A stretch of 64,000 nucleotides of DNA from Candidatus Borrarchaeum weybense (GCA_019057385.1 JAHQJS010000004.1:416001-480000); one strand, 5' to 3'; numbered from the stretch's first letter, positions 1-10,009 are shown. The notes: generated by a model not told the origin, from the sequence alone. Program-made: numbers and translations.

Positions 1-527
1 CTTGCCATCCGCCCCATCTTTTGTGAGGATTTGCAAACTGTAATTTTCTTTTGCCCAGTTTATCTCATTCATCCAACTACATGAAGTTACAACTAAATAA
101 ATATGCAAAGTAGATAAAAGGCATAACTATTAATCAGGTCTATGATTATTGTTTATCCTTCATATAGTGCATGAAATCTACTTTACTTGAGAGAGACTGC
201 AATAAAACTGTGAAAGTGGTTTTTTGTAGTTTTTAACTACTATCTTGCTACGATTTTGCTTTTAGTGAGAGCTCGTATAGATTCAATTAATGAAAATAAC
301 GATCTCAAATTTATGACAAACTCGATCGAACATGGTGAAGATTCTAGGAAAACGCTGAAAACATGCTAATGGTGATCTACTGAACGATCACAAGTGAGAT
401 TTGCGCGGATAAACGAGTGGAATCGAAAAGTATACTACAAAGGTTAACCTTAAGGATCCAATTTGAGTATATATATACTTGAATTCACAAATGAAATTAC
501 ATAAATATACTTGAAGAATGTGATAAA

Positions 528-842
528 ATGGCTGTAAATGATGTAATAATGGATAAAATATTATGTATGGTGTACCATTGGCAAGATGCTTATCCCAGTA
601 TATCTGAATTAAATAAGAGATTCGAAATAAAAAATATGGAAACAATTGAAGCAGATAGGGAGATATGGGAAAGAATATTAAAATTACAGGCTAAAAAATA
701 TGTAGAAATCAAAAGACCTCTTATTTCCATAACAAATCATGGCATTAACTATCTAAATAAAAAATATCCAGAACTTGCTGAGCGAAGTATAAAAGAATGC
801 CTTTTTGTAACTTGCAAAGATTGCGATATGTTAAGCTCTTAA
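528..842 (+). CDS. Small winged-helix DNA-binding protein with Cys-rich tail
   Basis: wHTH pattern ILCMVY..SISELNKRF..IWERILKLQAKKYVE..ISITNHGINYL; C-terminal CxxxxCxxC. Confidence 0.55.
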   Translation: MAVNDVIMDKILCMVYHWQDAYPSISELNKRFEIKNMETIEADREIWERILKLQAKKYVEIKRPLISITNHGINYLNKKYPELAERSIKECLFVTCKDCDMLSS

Positions 843-1051
843 TTTTGAATATTCTTTGAGCAATGCCTCTTATTCTAAATAATTTGAAAGACCGCAGAGT
901 GTTTAATATGCGCCTCAAGTCGCTTGACTAGTTAGTGTCCTATGATTATTAAACAATAAACTGGTTTATTTGTTCAGTTTTTTCAATTTGTTCCTGCTGG
1001 TTGATTAAAGGTAATTTTTTGAGTATACGAGGACAAAGGTTTTTGATGATT

Positions 1052-1299
1052 AATTTGTGTCTAAAAATAGAGATTTAAGAAAAACTAGAAGGAAAATTAC
1101 GAAAAAAGGTTATGTGTGTCTTAGATTTGTGGAAATAGAATTGATTAGAATTGAGAAAAATGAATATACTAAAATTAAAATGATCTTTGTCAAAAAATGA
1201 CTAATCAGAAATGAGAATAAGAATTTGTGTCTAAAGAGAAAAAATAGAGCAGGAAATTTAAGATAATTAATTTTTGGACAATTTTTTTAGACACAAATT
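1052..1299. repeat. Three exact copies of 14-mer AATTTGTGTCTAAA (direct 1052-1065, 1222-1235; inverted 1286-1299)
   Basis: Read directly; a weaker copy lies near 1112-1125. Confidence 0.85.
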
Positions 1300-1429
1300 G
1301 AAGGTCTTTTTCATTTGCCCTGTTCAAGTGTTGAAAGATCGTATTGGGCAAAACCATTATCTACTAGGTGTTTGCGTTGTGGATACCAAATCCTTACGCC
1401 TTTTATAAATAAATTTCCAACCATTTTGT

Positions 1430-3133
1430 ATGATCACAATGCCACATATATTGGGATGGTATTCGGTATGGGAACGGTTGGGACGAGCAGGTTATCTAAA
1501 GTTATTTGCTTTTCAGTATAAGGCGGTTTATGCATTCAGGGATGGAAAAGATATATTTGTAAAAGCACCAACGGGTGCAGGAAAGACGCTCATTCCGCTG
1601 ATTTGTGCTACTCTTATTCTTGGAATGAAAAAACGATGTGTGTTCCTTGTACCGACCAGGCGGTTGATCGACCAGACCTATGACCGACTCAAAGACTGGT
1701 TTGAAAGTATACCACATTGCGAAGAAGAGTACAATATCGTAACCTTAACAGGAGATAATCGACCTTCTTACAAAGAAATACGAGAAGTGCACATAATCAT
1801 AACAACCTACGAGTCTTTTAATGGTATGTTGGCAAAACATTACAGACATTCACTTTTGAACAATGTCGGACTTGTGGCGATTGATGAAATGCATTATGTC
1901 GGGGATGTAGAGAGAGGGACGCATCTTGAGGAGGCTATTGTCAAAGCGAAGTTGTGGTTGCGACCTCGTCCTCAGATGATCTACCTTGCGGCTACGTTAG
2001 GGAATATACAAGAAATTGGGGAGTGGTTAAAAGCTACAGTCATCGAAACAAAAAAACGCAAGTCGGAAATCATTGTTGGATCACCCATTAACGTCTATAA
2101 TGAGGATGAACGGTTAAAGGTTATTGCTCAGTTAGTTAAAGAAACGGATCAGATAGAGATAGGGGCAAAGGAAACTGACAAAAGATGTGTGCTGGTTTTT
2201 TGTAGATCGAGATGGCATGCCGAAACTAGAGCACAGAATCTTGCAAAAATGTTGGAGAAGGAAGGATACAAAAAAACTGTTTCATATAGCCACAGAGGAC
2301 TGAAAACTGTGGAACGACAAAAGCGGATGAAAGCGTTTCAAAAGGGTGAAATTGACGTGTTGTTCACCACAACAGAATACAAGGAGGGTGTGAATGCTCC
2401 AGTCCTGCGGGTCATCATAGCTGATACCGAGGTGTTCAATTCTCAGGACATTGAACAGATGATCGGAAGGGCAGCCCGTCCGCGATTTTTTCAGATCGGA
2501 TATGCAAATCTGATTATTCAGGGAAACATAGAAGACATTCTCGAAAATAAAAGAATAAGGATAGAGGAAGGGGTAGCCCATTTTGAGGAATCACCATTGG
2601 AAAGTTGGGCAAAATATCATTTGAACGAGATCATCCTCAACAGGTTAGCTAAGGGTGCCTGTTCGATAGGTCGGCTTATTAGGTATCTCAAAGAGTTTTA
2701 TTTTTACTTCGAGGATACAACTCAGATAAAGAATTGGTATAAAGTTATGGAAAACGCAATAAGTGAACGAGAGATGTTTATGCTTACCGCAGACAACTAT
2801 ATGATACTCTTCTCTTTAATAGATAATGACGATAGATACAATGCGAAGGATAAGAAGAACTTTCACTCTTTCGTAACTGAATTCCTGATGCGTAGTCGCA
2901 AGTGCGCTGAAACACAAAAAAGAAGGCGTAAAAGGGATAAAAAACTCGTACTTGAAAAGAAGATGGCTCTTGTTTTCTTGAAAGAATACTTAACTAATAA
3001 ACTAAAACGTTATGATGCTGAGCTAAAAACTCAAGTTAAAACTCATCTAGGCTACCTCATCCATATTGGGTTTCTTAAAAAACAGGAACTGGAATCTAAG
3101 GCAATAAAGGAAGGATTAGGAAGTGCAGTCTAA
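1430..3133 (+). CDS. SF2 Ski2/Hel308-like helicase, N-terminal part (RecA1/RecA2 plus start of winged helix)
   Basis: Q-motif LFAFQ, Walker A APTGAGKT, VPTRRL, DEMH, LAATL, LVFCRSR, TTEYKEGVNAP, QMIGRAAR. Confidence 0.92.
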   Translation: MITMPHILGWYSVWERLGRAGYLKLFAFQYKAVYAFRDGKDIFVKAPTGAGKTLIPLICATLILGMKKRCVFLVPTRRLIDQTYDRLKDWFESIPHCEEEYNIVTLTGDNRPSYKEIREVHIIITTYESFNGMLAKHYRHSLLNNVGLVAIDEMHYVGDVERGTHLEEAIVKAKLWLRPRPQMIYLAATLGNIQEIGEWLKATVIETKKRKSEIIVGSPINVYNEDERLKVIAQLVKETDQIEIGAKETDKRCVLVFCRSRWHAETRAQNLAKMLEKEGYKKTVSYSHRGLKTVERQKRMKAFQKGEIDVLFTTTEYKEGVNAPVLRVIIADTEVFNSQDIEQMIGRAARPRFFQIGYANLIIQGNIEDILENKRIRIEEGVAHFEESPLESWAKYHLNEIILNRLAKGACSIGRLIRYLKEFYFYFEDTTQIKNWYKVMENAISEREMFMLTADNYMILFSLIDNDDRYNAKDKKNFHSFVTEFLMRSRKCAETQKRRRKRDKKLVLEKKMALVFLKEYLTNKLKRYDAELKTQVKTHLGYLIHIGFLKKQELESKAIKEGLGSAV

Positions 3134-5468
3134 GGTAATAAAGAACGGGAAATATAGCGTAACAGAAACTGGACAATGGGCAAGTCAATTTCTATTAAAG
3201 ACCAGCGATGCAAAGAAGATCCACAAATTTCTCCAGACACAGTATTTTTATTCAGAAGACGACGCTTGTAAAAAACTGGCGACTCTTATAAGTGAGAGTG
3301 TCCGTGAGAACGATAATTCGCGATATAGAGCGCAACAATATGAGTTGTTCATATTATCTTTAGTAGAAGGGTTCGATATTGATGAGGCAGCGGAAAACGC
3401 TCGGATGCGACAAGGGGATGCCGAAGGGTGCAGAAGAACTGCCGCGTGGATTGCAGAGGCAGTTAATGCCTACGTTGGAAAGAACATTCCGAAGATCGCG
3501 GAAATGGCAGAAGGAATTAGTGAAGCGCTTACCGTAGATAAAAGAAGGGAAATAGGACCTGGGGTGCGAAGTTATGCAAAAGAGAAACCCTCGTCATATC
3601 CAGGTATTCAAAAAACAATTTGTTCTGTTATTAATCAATTAGGAATTTGCACATATGATGCGATCCATAACATAATTACTGACAAATATGGTGAGTCAGT
3701 AGATCGAACGACAACAATTTGGAACATCCTTGATTTAAGGGCGAAAGACGAAGTTATAACTTTATCAAGAGGCAAGGGAATAGGGCGTCCCGTAATCCAT
3801 GTGTGTAAAAAGGGAATGAATGTACCTGAACATATGCGCAAGACTTGCGGATCCTGTGTATTTTACATATCCTGTGACGATGATGAAAAAGAACGAGACA
3901 ATCAAAGATTTATCTGTGAACTGCGAAGGGAATGCAACAAGCGCGTGGAAAAAAATATTGTAAGCACGTACGTTACGAGCAATATGGGTGCGTGTAAATA
4001 TCATAATTCGTCTCAAGAGCGAAAAAGACGAAGTTTTCGTAAATTTGAGAGGACAGACACAGGCAAACCTATCTGCCAAATTTGTAAATCGGATGCCGTT
4101 AAGGAACCAACCGCTTATGATCACTACACCATATGTTCCAATTGTAATTCACAGTATTACTACCTTTGCGACGGCAGGTTCAGTGTTCAGCCAGGTGTCA
4201 GAGATTTATTACAGCAAGCATTAGAAGAAATCTATGGAAAGTCCGTTAAACCTGTTAAAAGGTGTGCAAAACTAGAGGGTTCTTTAGATCGGCAATACGT
4301 TGAATTAACCATTAAGAAAGGGGATGCAGCTCATATTGACCAAAATAAACTCATTTATATTCCAAAAGAGGAGAAGACACGTTCTTATTTGTTAGATGCC
4401 ATTGAATGTGTTAGAGTGCTTGACGGTGCATATATCACGCCTTATGTATATGAGAAACTCGATGACAGAATTTTATCTGGCAAGAATGTGAATAGACCGC
4501 CAAACGCTTCCTTTGAAGGGTATATAAACATACCTGACGTGCACAATCAACTGAAAGAACGTATACAAGAAATTCGAGAGCAAGAAGTTGGTTTGGCATT
4601 GGCGAGGATACTTATAATGGGTAAGAAAATGAATAATGCAATTCTTACTCTGCAAGCTGGTGAGGAGGGATTACTGTGCCCAGTAGATGCCAGCAGGTTA
4701 TTTTTCAAACAAATGAATGTTGTCGCCCATACTATCATGTATTGGACGGGAAATAGAGAAAATCTGCTCAGTTTCGAGGCGGTTGGCGAACGATACGCAT
4801 GGAAAGCAATTAAACGCGCCTTGAAGGATACATCTATGCGCTTTGAAAATCGTACACAGGAACGATATATCTTTTCGGTTCCCTATATCGGCAAAGTTAG
4901 GGCACGATCTCCCTTTAGTGCAGGACTTAATGCCATTTATCGCCGTGTCCTCGAAATATGTAGAGAGGTGCTTTGCGAAAAAGGATTCTCTTGGTTTCCT
5001 GGCGAACTCGTACTCCATTATAGAAGAAGAAAAGACCAACAAATCCCCATTGGAACAGCTCTTGATTTCCGAGAGTTGTTTTTGGCACTGTTCAGATTCA
5101 CTTATATGAAAGCGTGCAAGAAGGATCAAATTAGGAATACAGATTTTGTACTGTCAAGTACATCTCGCGAGGAAAAAGTATATACCCTTACATACGAGGC
5201 AGAGGATAAAGTTAGAGACTTAATCGAAAGCGTCATGAATAAAGAGGTATATTATCTTGGAAAACAGATGTCACTTTGGAAAGCAATGAAAGAATGCGCA
5301 CGTTCACTTCGCAACTTTTTATTAGAGGGATCTAAATTTATTCCTTTTGTCTGCGCATTAAATGAGGAGCAATTTAAAAAGATTTTAAAGACTTTCCAAA
5401 ATATAGAGAGGTTTTGTGGACCTTCAGGTAAAGGACCTCCTGTTTCAATGTTTGATATCTTATCATAA
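3123..5468 (+). CDS. cas1: Multidomain Cas1-family integrase: Hel308 C-terminal region + wHTH + Zn fingers + Cas1 domain (~4290-5350)
   Basis: Hel308 tail (SVTETGQWASQFLL; GDAEGCRRTAAWIAEA); CxxC pairs; Cas1 motifs in order: ALARILIMGKKMN, LLSFEAVGERYAW, RFENR, PFSAGLNAIY, VLH, ALDFRELF, terminal ARSLRNFL..FIPF. Confidence 0.85.
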   Translation: MQSKVIKNGKYSVTETGQWASQFLLKTSDAKKIHKFLQTQYFYSEDDACKKLATLISESVRENDNSRYRAQQYELFILSLVEGFDIDEAAENARMRQGDAEGCRRTAAWIAEAVNAYVGKNIPKIAEMAEGISEALTVDKRREIGPGVRSYAKEKPSSYPGIQKTICSVINQLGICTYDAIHNIITDKYGESVDRTTTIWNILDLRAKDEVITLSRGKGIGRPVIHVCKKGMNVPEHMRKTCGSCVFYISCDDDEKERDNQRFICELRRECNKRVEKNIVSTYVTSNMGACKYHNSSQERKRRSFRKFERTDTGKPICQICKSDAVKEPTAYDHYTICSNCNSQYYYLCDGRFSVQPGVRDLLQQALEEIYGKSVKPVKRCAKLEGSLDRQYVELTIKKGDAAHIDQNKLIYIPKEEKTRSYLLDAIECVRVLDGAYITPYVYEKLDDRILSGKNVNRPPNASFEGYINIPDVHNQLKERIQEIREQEVGLALARILIMGKKMNNAILTLQAGEEGLLCPVDASRLFFKQMNVVAHTIMYWTGNRENLLSFEAVGERYAWKAIKRALKDTSMRFENRTQERYIFSVPYIGKVRARSPFSAGLNAIYRRVLEICREVLCEKGFSWFPGELVLHYRRRKDQQIPIGTALDFRELFLALFRFTYMKACKKDQIRNTDFVLSSTSREEKVYTLTYEAEDKVRDLIESVMNKEVYYLGKQMSLWKAMKECARSLRNFLLEGSKFIPFVCALNEEQFKKILKTFQNIERFCGPSGKGPPVSMFDILS

Positions 5469-5703
5469 ATACAATTCACTTTTTGCTCTCTTTTTCGACT
5501 TGGATTAATTTAGACCATCAACCTCTTCCTTTTGGTTCTCTAAGAAATGCTTCTTCTTGGTGAAAAACCTAACTAAGAATAAATTTGATTCAATGTTTAT
5601 TTAAATGAAAAGAAGAACAAGAAAGGTTTTTTCCTCCATCTCCAAAGACATAGATAAAAACGTTACTAGATCGCTTATTTTTACAAAAGGAGTTCATAAA
5701 ATA

Positions 5704-5750
5704 ATCCGTTATACAAAAAGCGTTATTTAAAAACCGCAATGCTTATATAC
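5704..5750 (+). promoter_or_regulatory. Archaeal promoter (BRE + TATA), copy 1, upstream of cas7-like gene
   Basis: TACAAAAAGCGTTATTTAAAAACCGCAATGCTT, identical in copy 2 (6771-6817). Confidence 0.7.
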
Positions 5751-5782
5751 TCGGTTGCAAAGGTATATTTGAGGTTTTCAAA

Positions 5783-6598
5783 ATGAAAAAAACTAAGAAA
5801 CAGATCAATGTTCATGCCTTCACTCCTATTGCGAAACCGATCAATACCTCCATACAGAAAAATTCCACTATGCTTCTTTTGGGAGAAATTCCGTATGTCA
5901 ATGGATCGAAAACATTTACTACCAAGCTGTATTATCTCAAAGGTTTGCGAGGAATGCTGAGGCATGCCTGCATGGACTTAGCACGTGCTTACGATATCGA
6001 GGTCTGTCACAGTTCTGAAAAGACTGAACTCAGGGATGGGACAAAACTCGTCTCGCAAGGGTTTCATCCGCTGGGTGCCTGTGATCCTCCCTGCATTCTG
6101 AGGCGTATCTTCGGTACGTTCAGAGAAGACTCCCGCATTAGTGTTTCCGCCGATCCCATCACTTCTATCAGCCATAAGGAATACATTACCGAAGTTCCCG
6201 TCCAAAAAGTTCATATCGCCAGTGAAAATAGGATTGCTCTTTCCTATGACAGGATCCCCATACAAGACTTTAGACAATCCTATTTTTCAGGTTACTTTAC
6301 CTTTTCCATTGATGCCACCCAATTGACCGATGATGAGATTAAATTTCTCTTGGAATCGCTGTTGCATATAGAGTACTATGGTGGTGGCAGAAGTGCGGGC
6401 TATGGTCATGTCAAAATTCTAAATGTTGAATTGCTGCACATAACAATCGAAAGAAAATTTGAATCTGAGAACGGAACTCTGAAAGTCGTTGAAGAGGAAA
6501 AAGTAACTCCGCTAGAACTTGATACTCTCGATGACTGGACGGAAAGTATATCCCTATCTGCACTGACACAAGAACTAGAATTGATGGATGGGGAGTGA
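5783..6598 (+). CDS. cas7: Cas7-group RAMP protein
   Basis: N-terminal strand + TPI; LKGLRGMLRHA; Cys cluster VCH..GACDPPCILRRIFG; ENRIAL; Gly-rich loop YGGGRSAGYGHVKI. Confidence 0.85.
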   Translation: MKKTKKQINVHAFTPIAKPINTSIQKNSTMLLLGEIPYVNGSKTFTTKLYYLKGLRGMLRHACMDLARAYDIEVCHSSEKTELRDGTKLVSQGFHPLGACDPPCILRRIFGTFREDSRISVSADPITSISHKEYITEVPVQKVHIASENRIALSYDRIPIQDFRQSYFSGYFTFSIDATQLTDDEIKFLLESLLHIEYYGGGRSAGYGHVKILNVELLHITIERKFESENGTLKVVEEEKVTPLELDTLDDWTESISLSALTQELELMDGE

Positions 6599-6648
6599 AA
6601 AAGATGTTGAATAACCTGCAATACTCGTTATTTCCTTTTTTCTCATCT

Positions 6649-6770
6649 AAGACGGAATGCTTCCCTTGTAGCGAGGGGAGCACGTTCTTGTGCATGAGAC
6701 TGAACCATCTTGGAGGTCTGACGCCTCGTCTCATGGGGATGGATGACAGGCAGGGGACGAGAAAAGTCAC
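6649..6770 (+). ncRNA. Putative ~120-nt structured RNA/element, copy 1
   Basis: Invariant blocks shared with 7758-7875, separated by hairpins that differ in sequence but keep pairing; strand inferred from the copy 2 promoter. Confidence 0.65.
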
Positions 6771-6817
6771 ATCCGATTTACAAAAAGCGTTATTTAAAAA
6801 CCGCAATGCTTCTATAC
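6771..6817 (+). promoter_or_regulatory. Archaeal promoter, copy 2, upstream of RAMP-HD gene
   Basis: Near-identical to 5704-5750; followed by a perfect 9-bp hairpin GCCCGTTAT/ATAACGGGC at 6827-6851. Confidence 0.7.
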
Positions 6818-6875
6818 AATTAATATGCCCGTTATAACATTGATAACGGGCTAAAATCTATAAATAGGGATAAAG

Positions 6876-7691
6876 ATGACACAAAATTGGTTTAAATTGA
6901 TAGGAATCACCAAAACGCCTGTGATCACAAGAAGAAGGCGGTTTTTCTATAAATTAGGAGTAATCTCCATTCATGGTCGCCCCAGAGTCTTCGGTAAACT
7001 CACAAAAGGGGAAAGACGCCCACCTAAGACGTATAGGGCGTGGTATGGTGACGTCGAGTTTATCGTGCCAGAAGACAGACTTGACGACGCGCTCGCCATT
7101 GATTGTTTCGGGAGTTTCACTAATGAAGGCATGGGACAAATGCAATGGAAAGAAGCGAAAAAACTCTACAAAAAACCCCTCTATACTCCGAGAAAAGCCA
7201 AGATCAGAAAAATGCTTCCGAAACTTTCAGAGACGCAAGAAAAACTATTAATAGGTTTTTTACTTCATGATTTTGTCCATACCGAAAAACACAACAGCAA
7301 AATCTATACCGAGGTTAATATATATGATGGATTTGTCTATGAATTGGCTAAAAATCATCATAATTACACGATAGACGATAGAGAAATCCCTTTGCTCTGT
7401 ACTCTTCAATATTACGATAGGCTTTCTTCAAGAATCTCAAGAAAATTCCGCTTTTCTGCGTCCTCACGCTATCGCGTCACTGAAATAGAAAAAATAGATT
7501 TCGACGAACTTAAACAGGAGATCGAAACGCGCCAATATTCCCTATACGCGCTTTATAGTTATGTCTATAAGTCTCAGACACTCAATAAAATCAACGAAGC
7601 ACTCAAATTCGGTTTTTCATCGCTAAAAAATCATCTCTTATTAATGGTTAACCTGTATATTGATGACTCACAAGAGGCTATATACTTATGA
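6876..7691 (+). CDS. Minimal RAMP (Cas5-like) fused to Cas10-type permuted HD nuclease
   Basis: FKLIGITKTPV start, G-loop FGSFTNEGMGQMQW, then LLHDFVH, KNHH, YYDRLSS and C-terminal SLKNHLL. Confidence 0.75.
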   Translation: MTQNWFKLIGITKTPVITRRRRFFYKLGVISIHGRPRVFGKLTKGERRPPKTYRAWYGDVEFIVPEDRLDDALAIDCFGSFTNEGMGQMQWKEAKKLYKKPLYTPRKAKIRKMLPKLSETQEKLLIGFLLHDFVHTEKHNSKIYTEVNIYDGFVYELAKNHHNYTIDDREIPLLCTLQYYDRLSSRISRKFRFSASSRYRVTEIEKIDFDELKQEIETRQYSLYALYSYVYKSQTLNKINEALKFGFSSLKNHLLLMVNLYIDDSQEAIYL

Positions 7692-7757
7692 CACGAGAAA
7701 CTCTCGTTTTGAATAGTGGCGTTTATATAGGTCTTTGCAAGCGAATATACAAGTTAC

Positions 7758-7875
7758 AAGGCGGAATGTTCCTCGCATCACGCGGAGAACACGTTCTTGT
7801 GCATGAGACTGAACCTGAGAGGTCTGACGCCTCGTAGAAGGGAATGAATGACAGGTAGGGGACGAGAAAGGTCAA
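7758..7875 (+). ncRNA. Putative ~120-nt structured RNA/element, copy 2
   Basis: Homologous to 6649-6770; TATA box TTTATATA at 7722-7729 just upstream. Confidence 0.7.
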
Positions 7876-7935
7876 AAAACAAGTGGTGTATGCGATAAAG
7901 TGGACGTGTACCAAAAAGTAATATATAAACGATGG

Positions 7936-7957
7936 AGGGCTCATTTGAGCCCTTTTT
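7936..7957 (+). terminator. Hairpin followed by T-tract
   Basis: AGGGCTC-ATTT-GAGCCCT-TTTT. Confidence 0.5.
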
Positions 7958-8023
7958 ATCTATTTAAAAACTGAGTTTTCCCGCCGATTTGGTCAAAAAT
8001 ATAAAACTGATATTTATGATAAA

Positions 8024-8311
8024 GTGGATGTGTATGAAGGTGGAACTTGTCAATATTGCAAGGCAATCGTCAAAACCGCGCTACAATCTCTACACAAGAA
8101 AGGAGACATTTCGCTAGTCAAAGATATGCAAGTTATTGTTGGTAAAAACCCTTCCGAGCCATATTCGAAATCAAGTTTAGATTTTATTGTAGGCGATTGC
8201 GCATGTGAATCGACAGATTACGAGGGTATTGAAATTCCTGGTTGTCCACCCTTTGACGCTTTCGTAAAAATCAGAAAAGCAGTGCACAACAATGTTTCTG
8301 AGAAAACATAA
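8024..8311 (+). pseudogene. Probable C-terminal fragment of a DUF362-type Fe-S protein
   Basis: GTCQYC..VIVGK..IVGDC..IPGCPP pattern, normally the tail of a longer protein; N-terminal part absent. Confidence 0.5.
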
Positions 8312-8428
8312 TTTTCTTAAGTATAGTTCTAAATTGTCACTCGATTCATAAGTCAAATTTTCAAATATTCATCCATCAATTACACAATCGATCTAGTAAA
8401 GTTCGATTAAAAGGAAAAGGGGAGTTAA

Positions 8429-9172
8429 GTGCCTATATTATGGATTATATTGTTCAGTCTTTTAGGTAGTATAGGCGCTATTATTACAGCAGCGAGCTTT
8501 CTTTTATTACAGAAAAAAATACACAAAGACTTTCTCTCTTCATTAATCTCTTATGCAACTGGAACTTTGCTTGCTGCCGCATTATTAGGATTGATTCCAC
8601 ATGCACTAACGTACATAAGTCCCCTTCCAGTCTTATTCGCAGTCTTAGTAGGGATAATTCTTTTTTTCTCTCTTGAGAAATTGGTTATTTGGCGTCACTG
8701 TCATGACATAGAATGTGAAGTGCACGGTGCTGCAGGACCTATGATCCTCATGGGGGACGCATTTCATAATCTTATAGACGGGACTATAATTGCAGCTGGA
8801 TTCTTGGTATCTATACCACTTGGTATTATTGTGGGGCTCTCAGTTATTGCGCATGAAATTCCCCAAGAAGTAGGCGATTTTGGAATACTTCTTCATGGCG
8901 GTTATTCAGAAAGAAAAGCGCTATTCTTAAACCTTCTCTCTAGTTTAAGTACCGTACCCGGAGCAATTATCGCTTATTTCGCTTTAGATATCATCCAAAC
9001 CGCTATTCCTTACGTTATGGCTATTTCGGCAGCAAGTTTTCTGTATATTGCCTTATCTGATTTAACACCTGAACTACATCGCAAAGTTGGTGTCGGATAT
9101 GCTCTACGACAATTTCTTTTAATGATTGCTGGAGTTGGAACAATTCTTCTGATCCTTCAACTTCATCCCTAG
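8429..9172 (+). CDS. ZIP family metal transporter
   Basis: Hydrophobic helices; GDAFHNLIDG and AHEIPQEVGDFG motifs. Confidence 0.93.
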   Translation: MPILWIILFSLLGSIGAIITAASFLLLQKKIHKDFLSSLISYATGTLLAAALLGLIPHALTYISPLPVLFAVLVGIILFFSLEKLVIWRHCHDIECEVHGAAGPMILMGDAFHNLIDGTIIAAGFLVSIPLGIIVGLSVIAHEIPQEVGDFGILLHGGYSERKALFLNLLSSLSTVPGAIIAYFALDIIQTAIPYVMAISAASFLYIALSDLTPELHRKVGVGYALRQFLLMIAGVGTILLILQLHP

Positions 9173-9251
9173 AATGATTATGTTCTTCAATATCACGACA
9201 GAAGTTCCTCAAGTATTTCAGGAAAATTCAGATTTTCTGCGCCATTATTCA

Positions 9252-9330
9252 GAGAACACTTTCTTGTGAATTAAACTGAACTTAAAAGGTCTAACGCCTT
9301 ATAGAGGTTCATAATAAAACGAAAAGTTAA
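9252..9330 (+). repeat. Decayed third copy of the 120-nt element
   Basis: GAGAACACTTTCTTGTGAATTAAACTGAACTTAAAAGGTCTAACGCCTT aligns without gaps to 7785-7833. Confidence 0.75.
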
Positions 9331-9385
9331 ATTCTATACCTTTAAAATAGCTTGTATACAAATAATGAAAAAAGAAGGAAGATGG

Positions 9386-9490
9386 TTATTTAATTTCGAC
9401 TTTCTTCGCTGGTTCTGGTTCCTTCTTTGGAAGGATCAGAGTCAGAATTCCTTTATCTAGCGAAGCCTCAATCTGGTACGATATAACCAT
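9386..9490 (-). pseudogene. Hsp20/alpha-crystallin C-terminal remnant
   Basis: Translates MVISYQIEASLDKGILTLILPKKEPEPAKKVEIK*: A-x-x-x-x-GIL-x-L-x-LPK plus VEI tail; not in the ORF track. Confidence 0.7.
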
Positions 9491-9739
9491 GGTTTAGATT
9501 ACTTCTCGTTGAAATCGCCGAATTACCTGAAAAATTTCCTGATTTCATTTTCTTGGCTGTCCACGATGGCAAAATAATTGATTTTCTTCTAAGTGCAAGA
9601 TCAAGCGAAAAACAAATTTTGATATTCTTTTGCCTTCATTTGTCAAAACCAAAACTGTGAAATAAAGAATCTGCCCATAAAGCACCTCATTCATATAAGA
9701 CTTACATTAGTGATTACTAAGAATAAGGAGGAAAACTAA

Positions 9740-9898
9740 TTGGCAGAAAAGTGGCAGTGTTCAGTATGTGGCTATATTTATGACCCAGAAGTAGGTGATG
9801 AGCCATTTGTGGCACCTGGAACTCCATTTGAGGAAATCCCAGATGATTGGGTATGTCCAGTCTGTGGTGCGGACAAGGACATGTTCAAAAAAATGTAA
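9740..9898 (+). CDS. Rubredoxin (52 aa, TTG start)
   Basis: [30 protein letters not shown]; RBS AAGGAGG upstream; below the ORF-track cutoff. Confidence 0.95.
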
Positions 9899-10009
9899 AT
9901 GGGACTTTATCTAACTACAAAAATCAAAGCCTGACACGGTAAAGTTCCAATCTATTTTTTAAAGTTTACATCCCATAGATTTGTCAAACTACAAAGCGGA
10001 TGACAAGAC

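Follow-up and report, generated by a model that had tools for sequence, protein, structure and literature searches.

We analysed a stretch of 64,000 nucleotides from the genome of Candidatus Borrarchaeum weybense (GCA_019057385.1 JAHQJS010000004.1:416001-480000), hereafter the window, in which an open reading frame (ORF) at positions 3123-5468 (plus strand, GTG start, 781 codons) encodes a Cas1 domain. Cas1 enzymes record CRISPR memory and mobilise casposons. The ORF is the distinct Cas1 of the ARAMP systems, which are array-less, type III-derived systems of Asgard archaea. Judged by its sequence, it is the rear part of a protein of about 1,335 amino acids made of a Hel308-like helicase, a winged helix, two zinc clusters and Cas1. 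A system of this kind, ARAMP with a distinct Cas1, is already in print, and the local twist is that the gene is split. All six copies of the helicase-Cas1 gene in this genome belong to a module comprising two RAMP genes and two structured RNAs, and we think it somewhat more probable than the contrary that the fusion is the DNA-joining, or integrase, arm of this RNA- and RAMP-linked module. Against this reading we weighed, in decreasing order, a dead window copy, an adaptation-like writing of guides, a repair enzyme and a casposon-type transposase.

The Cas1 domain was searched for with profiles and by structure. The NCBIfam cas1 model TIGR00287 matched residues 477-738 of the ORF product (E=7e-7, 28.6 bits, below the curated cut-off of 71.7), and no Pfam family matched the 781 residues. 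Paralogs p4 (40.3 bits) and p5 (35.9 bits) pass PF01867, whose cut-off is 22.3, and several wider relatives pass it too. Searches of the PDB sequences with the family of this ORF, by phmmer and with profiles, gave no Cas1 match. Residues 370-781 were then aligned with seven close homologs (alignment A1) and folded, which gave a model with a pLDDT (predicted local distance difference test) of 71. The model has the two-domain fold of Cas1, an N-terminal beta domain followed by a C-terminal helical catalytic domain (4299-5384, plus strand). Each of its 50 best Foldseek matches in the PDB was a Cas1 protein or a casposase (4n06, E=1e-11), which bears out the likeness put forward in a preliminary description of this DNA. 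The N-terminal beta domain described there is likewise predicted, at residues ~393-432 (strands 24-63 of the model).

The same description had placed a glutamate, a histidine and acidic residues at the positions expected for the Cas1 active site, and these assignments hold. The residues are E552 (in FEAVG, codon 4776-4778), H632 (in VLHY, 5016-5018), and D648 and E651 (in LDFRE, 5064-5066 and 5073-5075), all on the plus strand; they align with those of canonical Cas1, which in Escherichia coli are E141, H208, D218 and D221 (PMC4046053). All four are invariant across A1. In a MAFFT alignment of 25 sequences that takes in the canonical Cas1 of this genome, the four residues stand in the columns of its E, H, D and E, and wider relatives have E, H, D and D there. 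When the family profile was compared by hhalign with the genome's own Cas1, the probability was 2%; the E and H were placed correctly and the D/E motif was off by four residues, an offset that the MAFFT alignment resolved. As the fold and all four catalytic residues are kept, the Cas1 domain is, on the evidence of alignment and model, most likely an active enzyme that joins or cuts DNA.

The ORF is preceded on the same strand by another one, at 1430-3133 (567 amino acids), with which it overlaps by 11 nt. This first ORF encodes a superfamily 2 (SF2) motor of the Hel308/Ski2 kind, with RecA1 and RecA2 domains and the start of a winged helix (PF00270, E=3e-30; PF00271, E=7e-16; motifs GAGKT at residue 49, DEMH at 152 and GRAAR at 346). 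Its best NCBIfam matches are Hel308-type helicases, at 117-139 bits against equivalog cut-offs of 887-1216; as far as these scores indicate, the helicase part is a relative of Hel308 but no ortholog. In the five paralogs present in the genome (36-54% identity), the motor is continuous with Cas1 in one open frame of 1,323-1,363 codons. Both homologs in G004, a metagenome-assembled genome of the same-genus Ca. Borrarchaeum yapensis, also read as long single frames.

Alignment with the paralogs shows that the end of ORF 1430-3133 and the start of ORF 3123-5468 cover one wing motif of the helicase winged helix, the second ORF being the C-terminal 58% of the helicase-Cas1 gene. An imperfect tandem duplication of 34 nt lies at this place (3095-3162, plus strand; units from 3095, where the sequence opens with TCTAAGG, and from 3129; 17 of the 22 leading bases identical). 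Both units encode the wing motif (SKAIKEG and SKVIKNG), which is single in the paralogs. Because the duplication adds 34 nt, the frame is shifted by +1 and the gene is split: 3131-3133 is the stop of the helicase frame, and the GTG at 3123 opens the Cas1 frame. The ORF is not a whole gene but half of a frameshift-split one, of which the five paralogs are the single-frame versions. The duplication itself may be an assembly error.

Upstream of Cas1, the ORF carries a ratchet-like remnant of the helicase, a winged helix-turn-helix and two zinc clusters. This part was studied on an alignment of nine sequences (A2) and a model of the N-terminal half (pLDDT 65), for which Foldseek E-values were weak overall (0.01-0.2). 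Residues ~15-137 (3165-3533, plus strand) form in the model a domain of seven helices resembling the ratchet domain of Hel308, Hjm and Pol theta. It matches 9b15_B, 2p6u, 2va8 and 2zj2 with a probability of ~1.0 but weak E-values (0.03-0.17) over ~150-165 aligned columns, and the equivalent portion of Hel308, Hjm, Pol theta and Brr2 aligns with it. Residues 162-229 (3606-3809, plus strand) are modelled as a winged helix-turn-helix of three helices and a two-strand wing, which superposes on PadR, Z-alpha, TFE-alpha and Stf76 with a root-mean-square deviation of 1.6-3 Å over ~70 residues. The two Cys4 clusters (3846-4145, plus strand) are C242/C245/C265/C291, modelled at low confidence, and C318/C321/C338/C341, a small ribbon in the model; the eight cysteines are invariant in the nine sequences, in agreement with the two clusters claimed at first. 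On account of the model, the Foldseek matches and the invariant cysteines, the initial picture of a fused helicase tail, winged helix-turn-helix and zinc fingers stands, weakly so for the tail. The winged helix, the zinc clusters and the tie between helicase and Cas1 are kept, but the tail match is weak and the motor lies in ORF 1430-3133, which is why a helicase tail alone had been seen.

The six helicase-Cas1 copies are all followed by two genes of ~270 codons and by two structured RNAs of ~125 nt with variable tails. In the window, the first gene (5783-6598, plus strand, 271 amino acids) encodes a Cas7-like RAMP protein (PF03787, E=4e-6, above the cut-off; weak matches to type III RAMPs), whose nearest Atlas cluster is a RAMP cluster commonest in Heimdallarchaeota. 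The second gene (6876-7691, plus strand, 271 amino acids) is predicted to encode a small RAMP-like N-terminus followed by an HD-type domain, and its motifs LLHDF, NHHNY and YYDRLS are conserved in six paralogs. The HD assignment was made from motifs, since the gene has no match in Pfam, NCBIfam or Atlas; its RAMP part has no profile behind it. The Cas7-like gene occurs eleven times in the genome, and six of the ~eleven RAMP cassettes have a helicase-Cas1 gene. The self-contained integrase first proposed is therefore abandoned in favour of a member of a conserved module.

The scaffold of RNA 1 is at 6648-6773 (plus strand), with a variable tail to ~6817; that of RNA 2 is at 7757-7874 (plus strand), with a TATA-like TTTATATA ~30 nt upstream. 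Using nhmmer, 26 copies of the scaffold were found in the genome, with no match to an Rfam family. When 22 copies were analysed with RNAalifold, compensatory changes were seen at eight pairs of the first hairpin, along with a conserved long-range helix. The stretch 6771-6817, where the RNA 1 tail lies, doubles as the RAMP-HD promoter, and a promoter-like stretch ahead of the Cas7-like gene (5704-5750, plus strand) is 94% identical to it. Within the locus, the RNA 1 tail and the Cas7-like promoter region agree at 37 of 40 positions (33/33 nt in another comparison), against ~20 of 40, the background level, between clades. The paired promoter-like stretches of the cassettes are thus nearly identical within a locus and drift together between clades. 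This identity could result from RNA-guided autoregulation, from a shared locus-specific operator or from gene conversion.

On contig C9 of G004 (L042:1298-3016, minus strand), a helicase-Cas1 cassette has four scaffold copies downstream of it, no two with the same tail; the spacing between three of these copies is 227-267 nt, and the whole resembles a miniature array of long repeats.

The partners reported missing by the preliminary description, Cas2, an array and PolB, are indeed absent from the locus. There is no cas2, the sole PF09827 match of the genome being at C4:154630, beside the canonical cas1 and ~265 kb away. TRF detected no CRISPR array in the window, merely the two ~125-nt scaffold repeats 1.1 kb apart. 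No PolB gene lies near any of the six copies, PF00136 matches being restricted to C5:293-295 kb and C4:220 kb. We thus find an array-less locus with a diverged Cas7-type RAMP, and a distinct Cas1 in six of the ~eleven cassettes, in a genus of Asgard archaea (kingdom Promethearchaeati). ARAMP systems likewise have an Asgard host, no array, a diverged Cas7-like gene and, in most loci, a distinct Cas1; for their second RAMP gene with a nuclease, gene 6876-7691 is the putative counterpart. ARAMP with a distinct Cas1 were reportedly described in 2020 by Makarova, Wolf, Shmakov, Liu, Li and Koonin in CRISPR J 3:156.

In the passages that Koonin and Makarova devote to them, ARAMP are derived from CRISPR, occur in many Asgard archaea and are distant relatives of the haloarchaeal HRAMP; their mechanism is enigmatic, and diverse Asgard Cas1 homologs are called 'possibly associated with novel MGE' (mobile genetic elements) (PMC8730458). 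The entry on ARAMP in the 2025 CRISPR classification describes them as array-less and type III-derived, HNH and PD-(D/E)xK being the commonest nucleases (PMC12669027). The passages on ARAMP in these two summaries make no mention of a split gene, of ~125-nt scaffold RNAs with variable tails, or of a match between a tail and an insertion site. Another archaeal Cas1 homolog found outside CRISPR loci, Cas1-solo group 1, is reported solely from Methanomicrobiales, with an incomplete catalytic set (PMC4046053). This identity was rejected, all four catalytic residues being present here in an Asgard host. As for the extent of the family, a profile of the Cas1 domain, run against 1.84 billion representatives, gave 57 clusters, with long helicase-Cas1 fusions making up many of them. 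A match was found in 4 of the 41 genomes searched, including this one; a scan of genome contigs returned solely the two G004 loci, and a word-index homolog search three relatives.

The module forms the right end of an island interrupting a host gene of the DUF362 family. This gene is uninterrupted, with 426 codons, in genomes G002, G003 and G004. Here its displaced 3' fragment (residues 328-426, codons at 8012-8308) is at 7998-8311 (plus strand), 95% identical to the G004 ortholog, and its 5' part is 28.7 kb to the left, at C4:394310-395300. G004 is collinear with this genome up to C4:~395300, and again from window position 8037 on, with 95-96% identity from there onward; the 28.7 kb between the two parts of the gene are absent from G004. 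The island's right end (7917-7997, plus strand) holds a terminator-like structure made of a G+C hairpin and then a run of T, and similarity to relatives ceases left of ~7998-8012. The island begins with its own, more diverged copy of the end of the DUF362 gene. The left flank of the window was not found in four same-genus genomes because it consists of island cargo, which comprises TIR, RNase III, Piwi, HD, AAA, SMC-like and HSP70-like genes. No tyrosine recombinase was found on the island (PF00589, C4:395-424 kb), and Pfam recognised no recombinase among the island ORFs.

Within the cargo, to the left of the window, L041:2149-6422 (C4:396148-400421) encodes on one strand a TIR protein (243 amino acids), an RNase III with a double-stranded RNA-binding domain (282 amino acids) and a Piwi Argonaute (776 amino acids), the last two genes overlapping; an HD/HD_assoc_2 protein is encoded further on. 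The trio resembles a prokaryotic Argonaute defence set with an unusual RNase III partner. On the other side of the junction, a ZIP transporter gene (8372-9172) is at this site in the present genome (G000), in G003 and in G004. In G002 it is missing from the site, the DUF362 end running into a region homologous to the window from 9483 onward, and a ZIP copy lies on another contig.

In its variable tail (7875-7916, plus strand), RNA 2 carries the sequence of the uninterrupted DUF362 site (attB), in diverged form and reaching across the point of insertion. Positions 7879-7916 agree with the empty site at 28 of 38 positions in G002 and at 27 of 38 in G004, and the crossover point is spanned. Compared with 7998-8034, the tail agrees at 26 of 36 positions, a level reached by none of 500 shuffles. 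No other copy of the target site was found in window 1-8000. Of the eight mismatches between tail and site within the first 36 positions, four fall in one 6-nt register, which is not significant (hypergeometric ~0.08 after correction for six registers).

Since no other integrase was found on the island, we read the helicase-Cas1 fusion as the integrase arm of the module. The RNA/RAMP part would mark a DNA site, the helicase would open or clear this site or prepare DNA ends, and Cas1 would join DNA at the marked site. In this scheme the RNAs would be made, bind to the RAMPs and bring in the fusion, Cas1 would carry out the insertion, and the split copy would still be functional. A bolder version, which we advance tentatively and find rather improbable, makes helicase-Cas1 the integrase of an RNA-addressed mobile island: the ~36-nt tail would be complementary to the site, the Cas7-like and RAMP-HD proteins would locate it, and the fusion would join the 28.7-kb defence island there. 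The other RNA, whose tail has the sequence of the cassette's own promoters, would in that version autoregulate the module. The role of the ARAMP Cas1 is called enigmatic where published summaries touch on it, and the locus gives it a concrete form, an apparently active Cas1 with a helicase, the only recognisable integrase on the island and an RNA tail spelling the empty site. If the bolder version were true, it would be a new mode of RNA-addressed DNA insertion, a possible tool and a Cas1-based counterpart of CRISPR-associated transposons; if the link with the tail were false, the locus would still be a clean natural example of a fusion gene turned into two overlapping genes.

Several observations weigh against the integrase reading. 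The window copy, being frameshifted, may be a dead gene. Helicase-Cas1 is missing from about five of the RAMP/RNA cassettes, so that the RAMP part does not need it. Several island ORFs (196-475 amino acids, C4:403-408 kb) have no family match, and the island carries its own diverged copy of the host gene 3' end; such a copy is a classic signature of islands moved by tyrosine recombinases. No convincing inverted repeats were seen in window 1-10000, and no target-site duplication was found, the true left end being outside the window and compared by alignment alone. Finally, a significant near-copy was seen in the 400 nt downstream for just 3 of the 24 RNA tails.

The strongest competitor, doubtful as we judge it, is that the window copy is dead or dying: the 34-nt duplication would have inactivated the fusion, the island would now be fixed, and the intact Cas1 residues would reflect the recency of the damage. 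The frameshift does fall inside the wing of the helicase winged helix, in a gene kept as a single long frame in the five paralogs and both G004 homologs. Decay also occurs at this locus, an older cassette 1.2 kb away being decayed. However, the two halves are open for 567 and 781 codons, with no further stop in 4 kb, and the window copy keeps every residue that is invariant in the family (73 columns in A1, 55 in A2). Of 22 bases compared between the duplicate units, 5 already disagree; had this been neutral drift, we estimate that several stops would be expected in an unselected frame of 4 kb. In addition, a purine-rich stretch and a GTG just ahead of the helicase-frame stop fit a coupled restart, and a relative has separate Cas1 and helicase genes. 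The overlapping motor and Cas1 ORFs could thus be translationally coupled, as far as their arrangement tells. Programmed +1 frameshifting is unlikely, as no slippery site was seen in the sequence across 3120-3131. Two-polypeptide forms do exist, given that some relatives of ~800 amino acids have no motor domains and that one of them adjoins a separate SF2 helicase gene, and a working form of this kind is plausible for the window copy.

More distant, motor-less Cas1 relatives were seen at L046:6001-11413 and L049:6001-9866. Behind the gene of one (843 amino acids, with a winged helix-turn-helix) come genes for a separate SF2 helicase, a protein with an MrfA-type zinc domain and a metallophosphatase; behind that of another (863 amino acids) comes a TnpB/Cas12f-like gene. 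The decayed cassette mentioned above (9184-9330, plus strand) lies just past the ZIP transporter gene and consists of 58 nt from the 3' end of a RAMP-HD gene, to which a degenerate scaffold RNA is attached. This remnant is also present in G004, where the scaffold is better preserved, and therefore predates the split of both genomes.

We regard as unlikely the view that helicase-Cas1 serves adaptation, in which the RAMP, HD and RNA components would be an array-less interference machinery and the fusion would insert new tails beside the scaffold RNA gene, the island not being moved. Spacer integration is the established role of Cas1, the scaffold RNAs have a different tail at each site, and the four scaffolds in a row on G004 C9, with unrelated tails, look like a small array. 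The cargo of the island is defence-like (TIR, RNase III, Piwi, HD, SMC-like), and the 37-nt repeat pair (7874-7910 and 7998-8034) around an 87-nt insert resembles a repeat duplication made by Cas1. Yet the tails seen here correspond not to foreign DNA but to the promoter of the cassette itself and, at the insertion point, to the host gene, and RNA 1 tails are conserved within clades in the way of regulatory DNA. Adaptation also fits poorly with the absence of cas2 and with the ~five cassettes lacking Cas1.

Hel308 helicases act at stalled forks, and a DNA repair or fork-processing enzyme may be imagined in which a Hel308-like helicase assists a Cas1 nuclease on branched DNA, the RAMP link being mere co-location. 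Cleavage of branched DNA is recorded for E. coli Cas1 (cited in PMC4046053), and the relative accompanied by the MrfA-type zinc domain and the metallophosphatase has no RAMPs around it. We hold this very unlikely, as six diverged paralogs each keep their RAMP/RNA neighbours, and a housekeeping repair gene would not be expected to be as rare and patchy as this family. A casposon-type transposase, that is a Cas1 moving a self-replicating element, would account for a Cas1 without Cas2 or array in an inserted island, but is hardly credible: in contrast to casposases (6opm), there is no PolB near any of the six copies, neither terminal inverted repeats (window 1-10000) nor a target duplication of 14-15 bp (window 1-8000) were found, the left end of the island being compared by alignment, and RAMP genes and RNAs take the place of replication genes among the conserved neighbours.

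Returning to the integrase reading, the fusion may be compared with better known Cas1 systems. With CRISPR Cas1-Cas2 (A. fulgidus Cas1, 4n06; E. coli Cas1-Cas2, 5ds5), it shares the two-domain fold and the E-H-D-D/E set, but it has no Cas2 and no leader or repeat array, and it has ~950 extra N-terminal residues (helicase, winged helix-turn-helix, zinc clusters). The similarity in sequence is low enough for this copy to escape Pfam and for Cas1 to be missed in the profile search of the PDB sequences. Type I-F Cas1-Cas2/3 (8flj and 9p1d, among the structural matches of the Cas1 domain) also couples a Cas1 integrase to an SF2 helicase. That helicase is Cas3, fused to Cas2 and bound to Cas1 non-covalently, whereas here a Hel308/Ski2-type motor is fused upstream of Cas1 (and split from it in the window copy), with no Cas2 and no HD domain on the chain. 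By analogy, CRISPR-associated transposons with homing guides, and the omega-RNAs of TnpB and IscB, likewise have an element-borne RNA near an end, whose variable part matches a chromosomal site next to the insertion. Unlike in those transposons, the candidate joining enzyme is a Cas1 and not a DDE transposase, and the match starts at the junction, not ~50 bp away; no search for Tn7 genes was made.

Upstream of the helicase start, three more features were noted. At 528-842, between the island cargo and the helicase gene, is an ORF of 104 codons with no family and no second copy in the genome by tblastn. A 70-nt block (246-315) has a single counterpart in the genome, at C4:345907-345976 (90% identity), 130-200 nt ahead of the helicase-Cas1 paralog p5; the proteins behind this pair of blocks are just 36% identical, and the block may be a regulatory or an end sequence. 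Three copies of the motif AATTTGTGTCTAAA are also present there (1052-1067, 1222-1237 and 1284-1299), two of the copies forming a perfect 16-nt inverted pair 216 nt apart, possibly an operator or a small inserted element.

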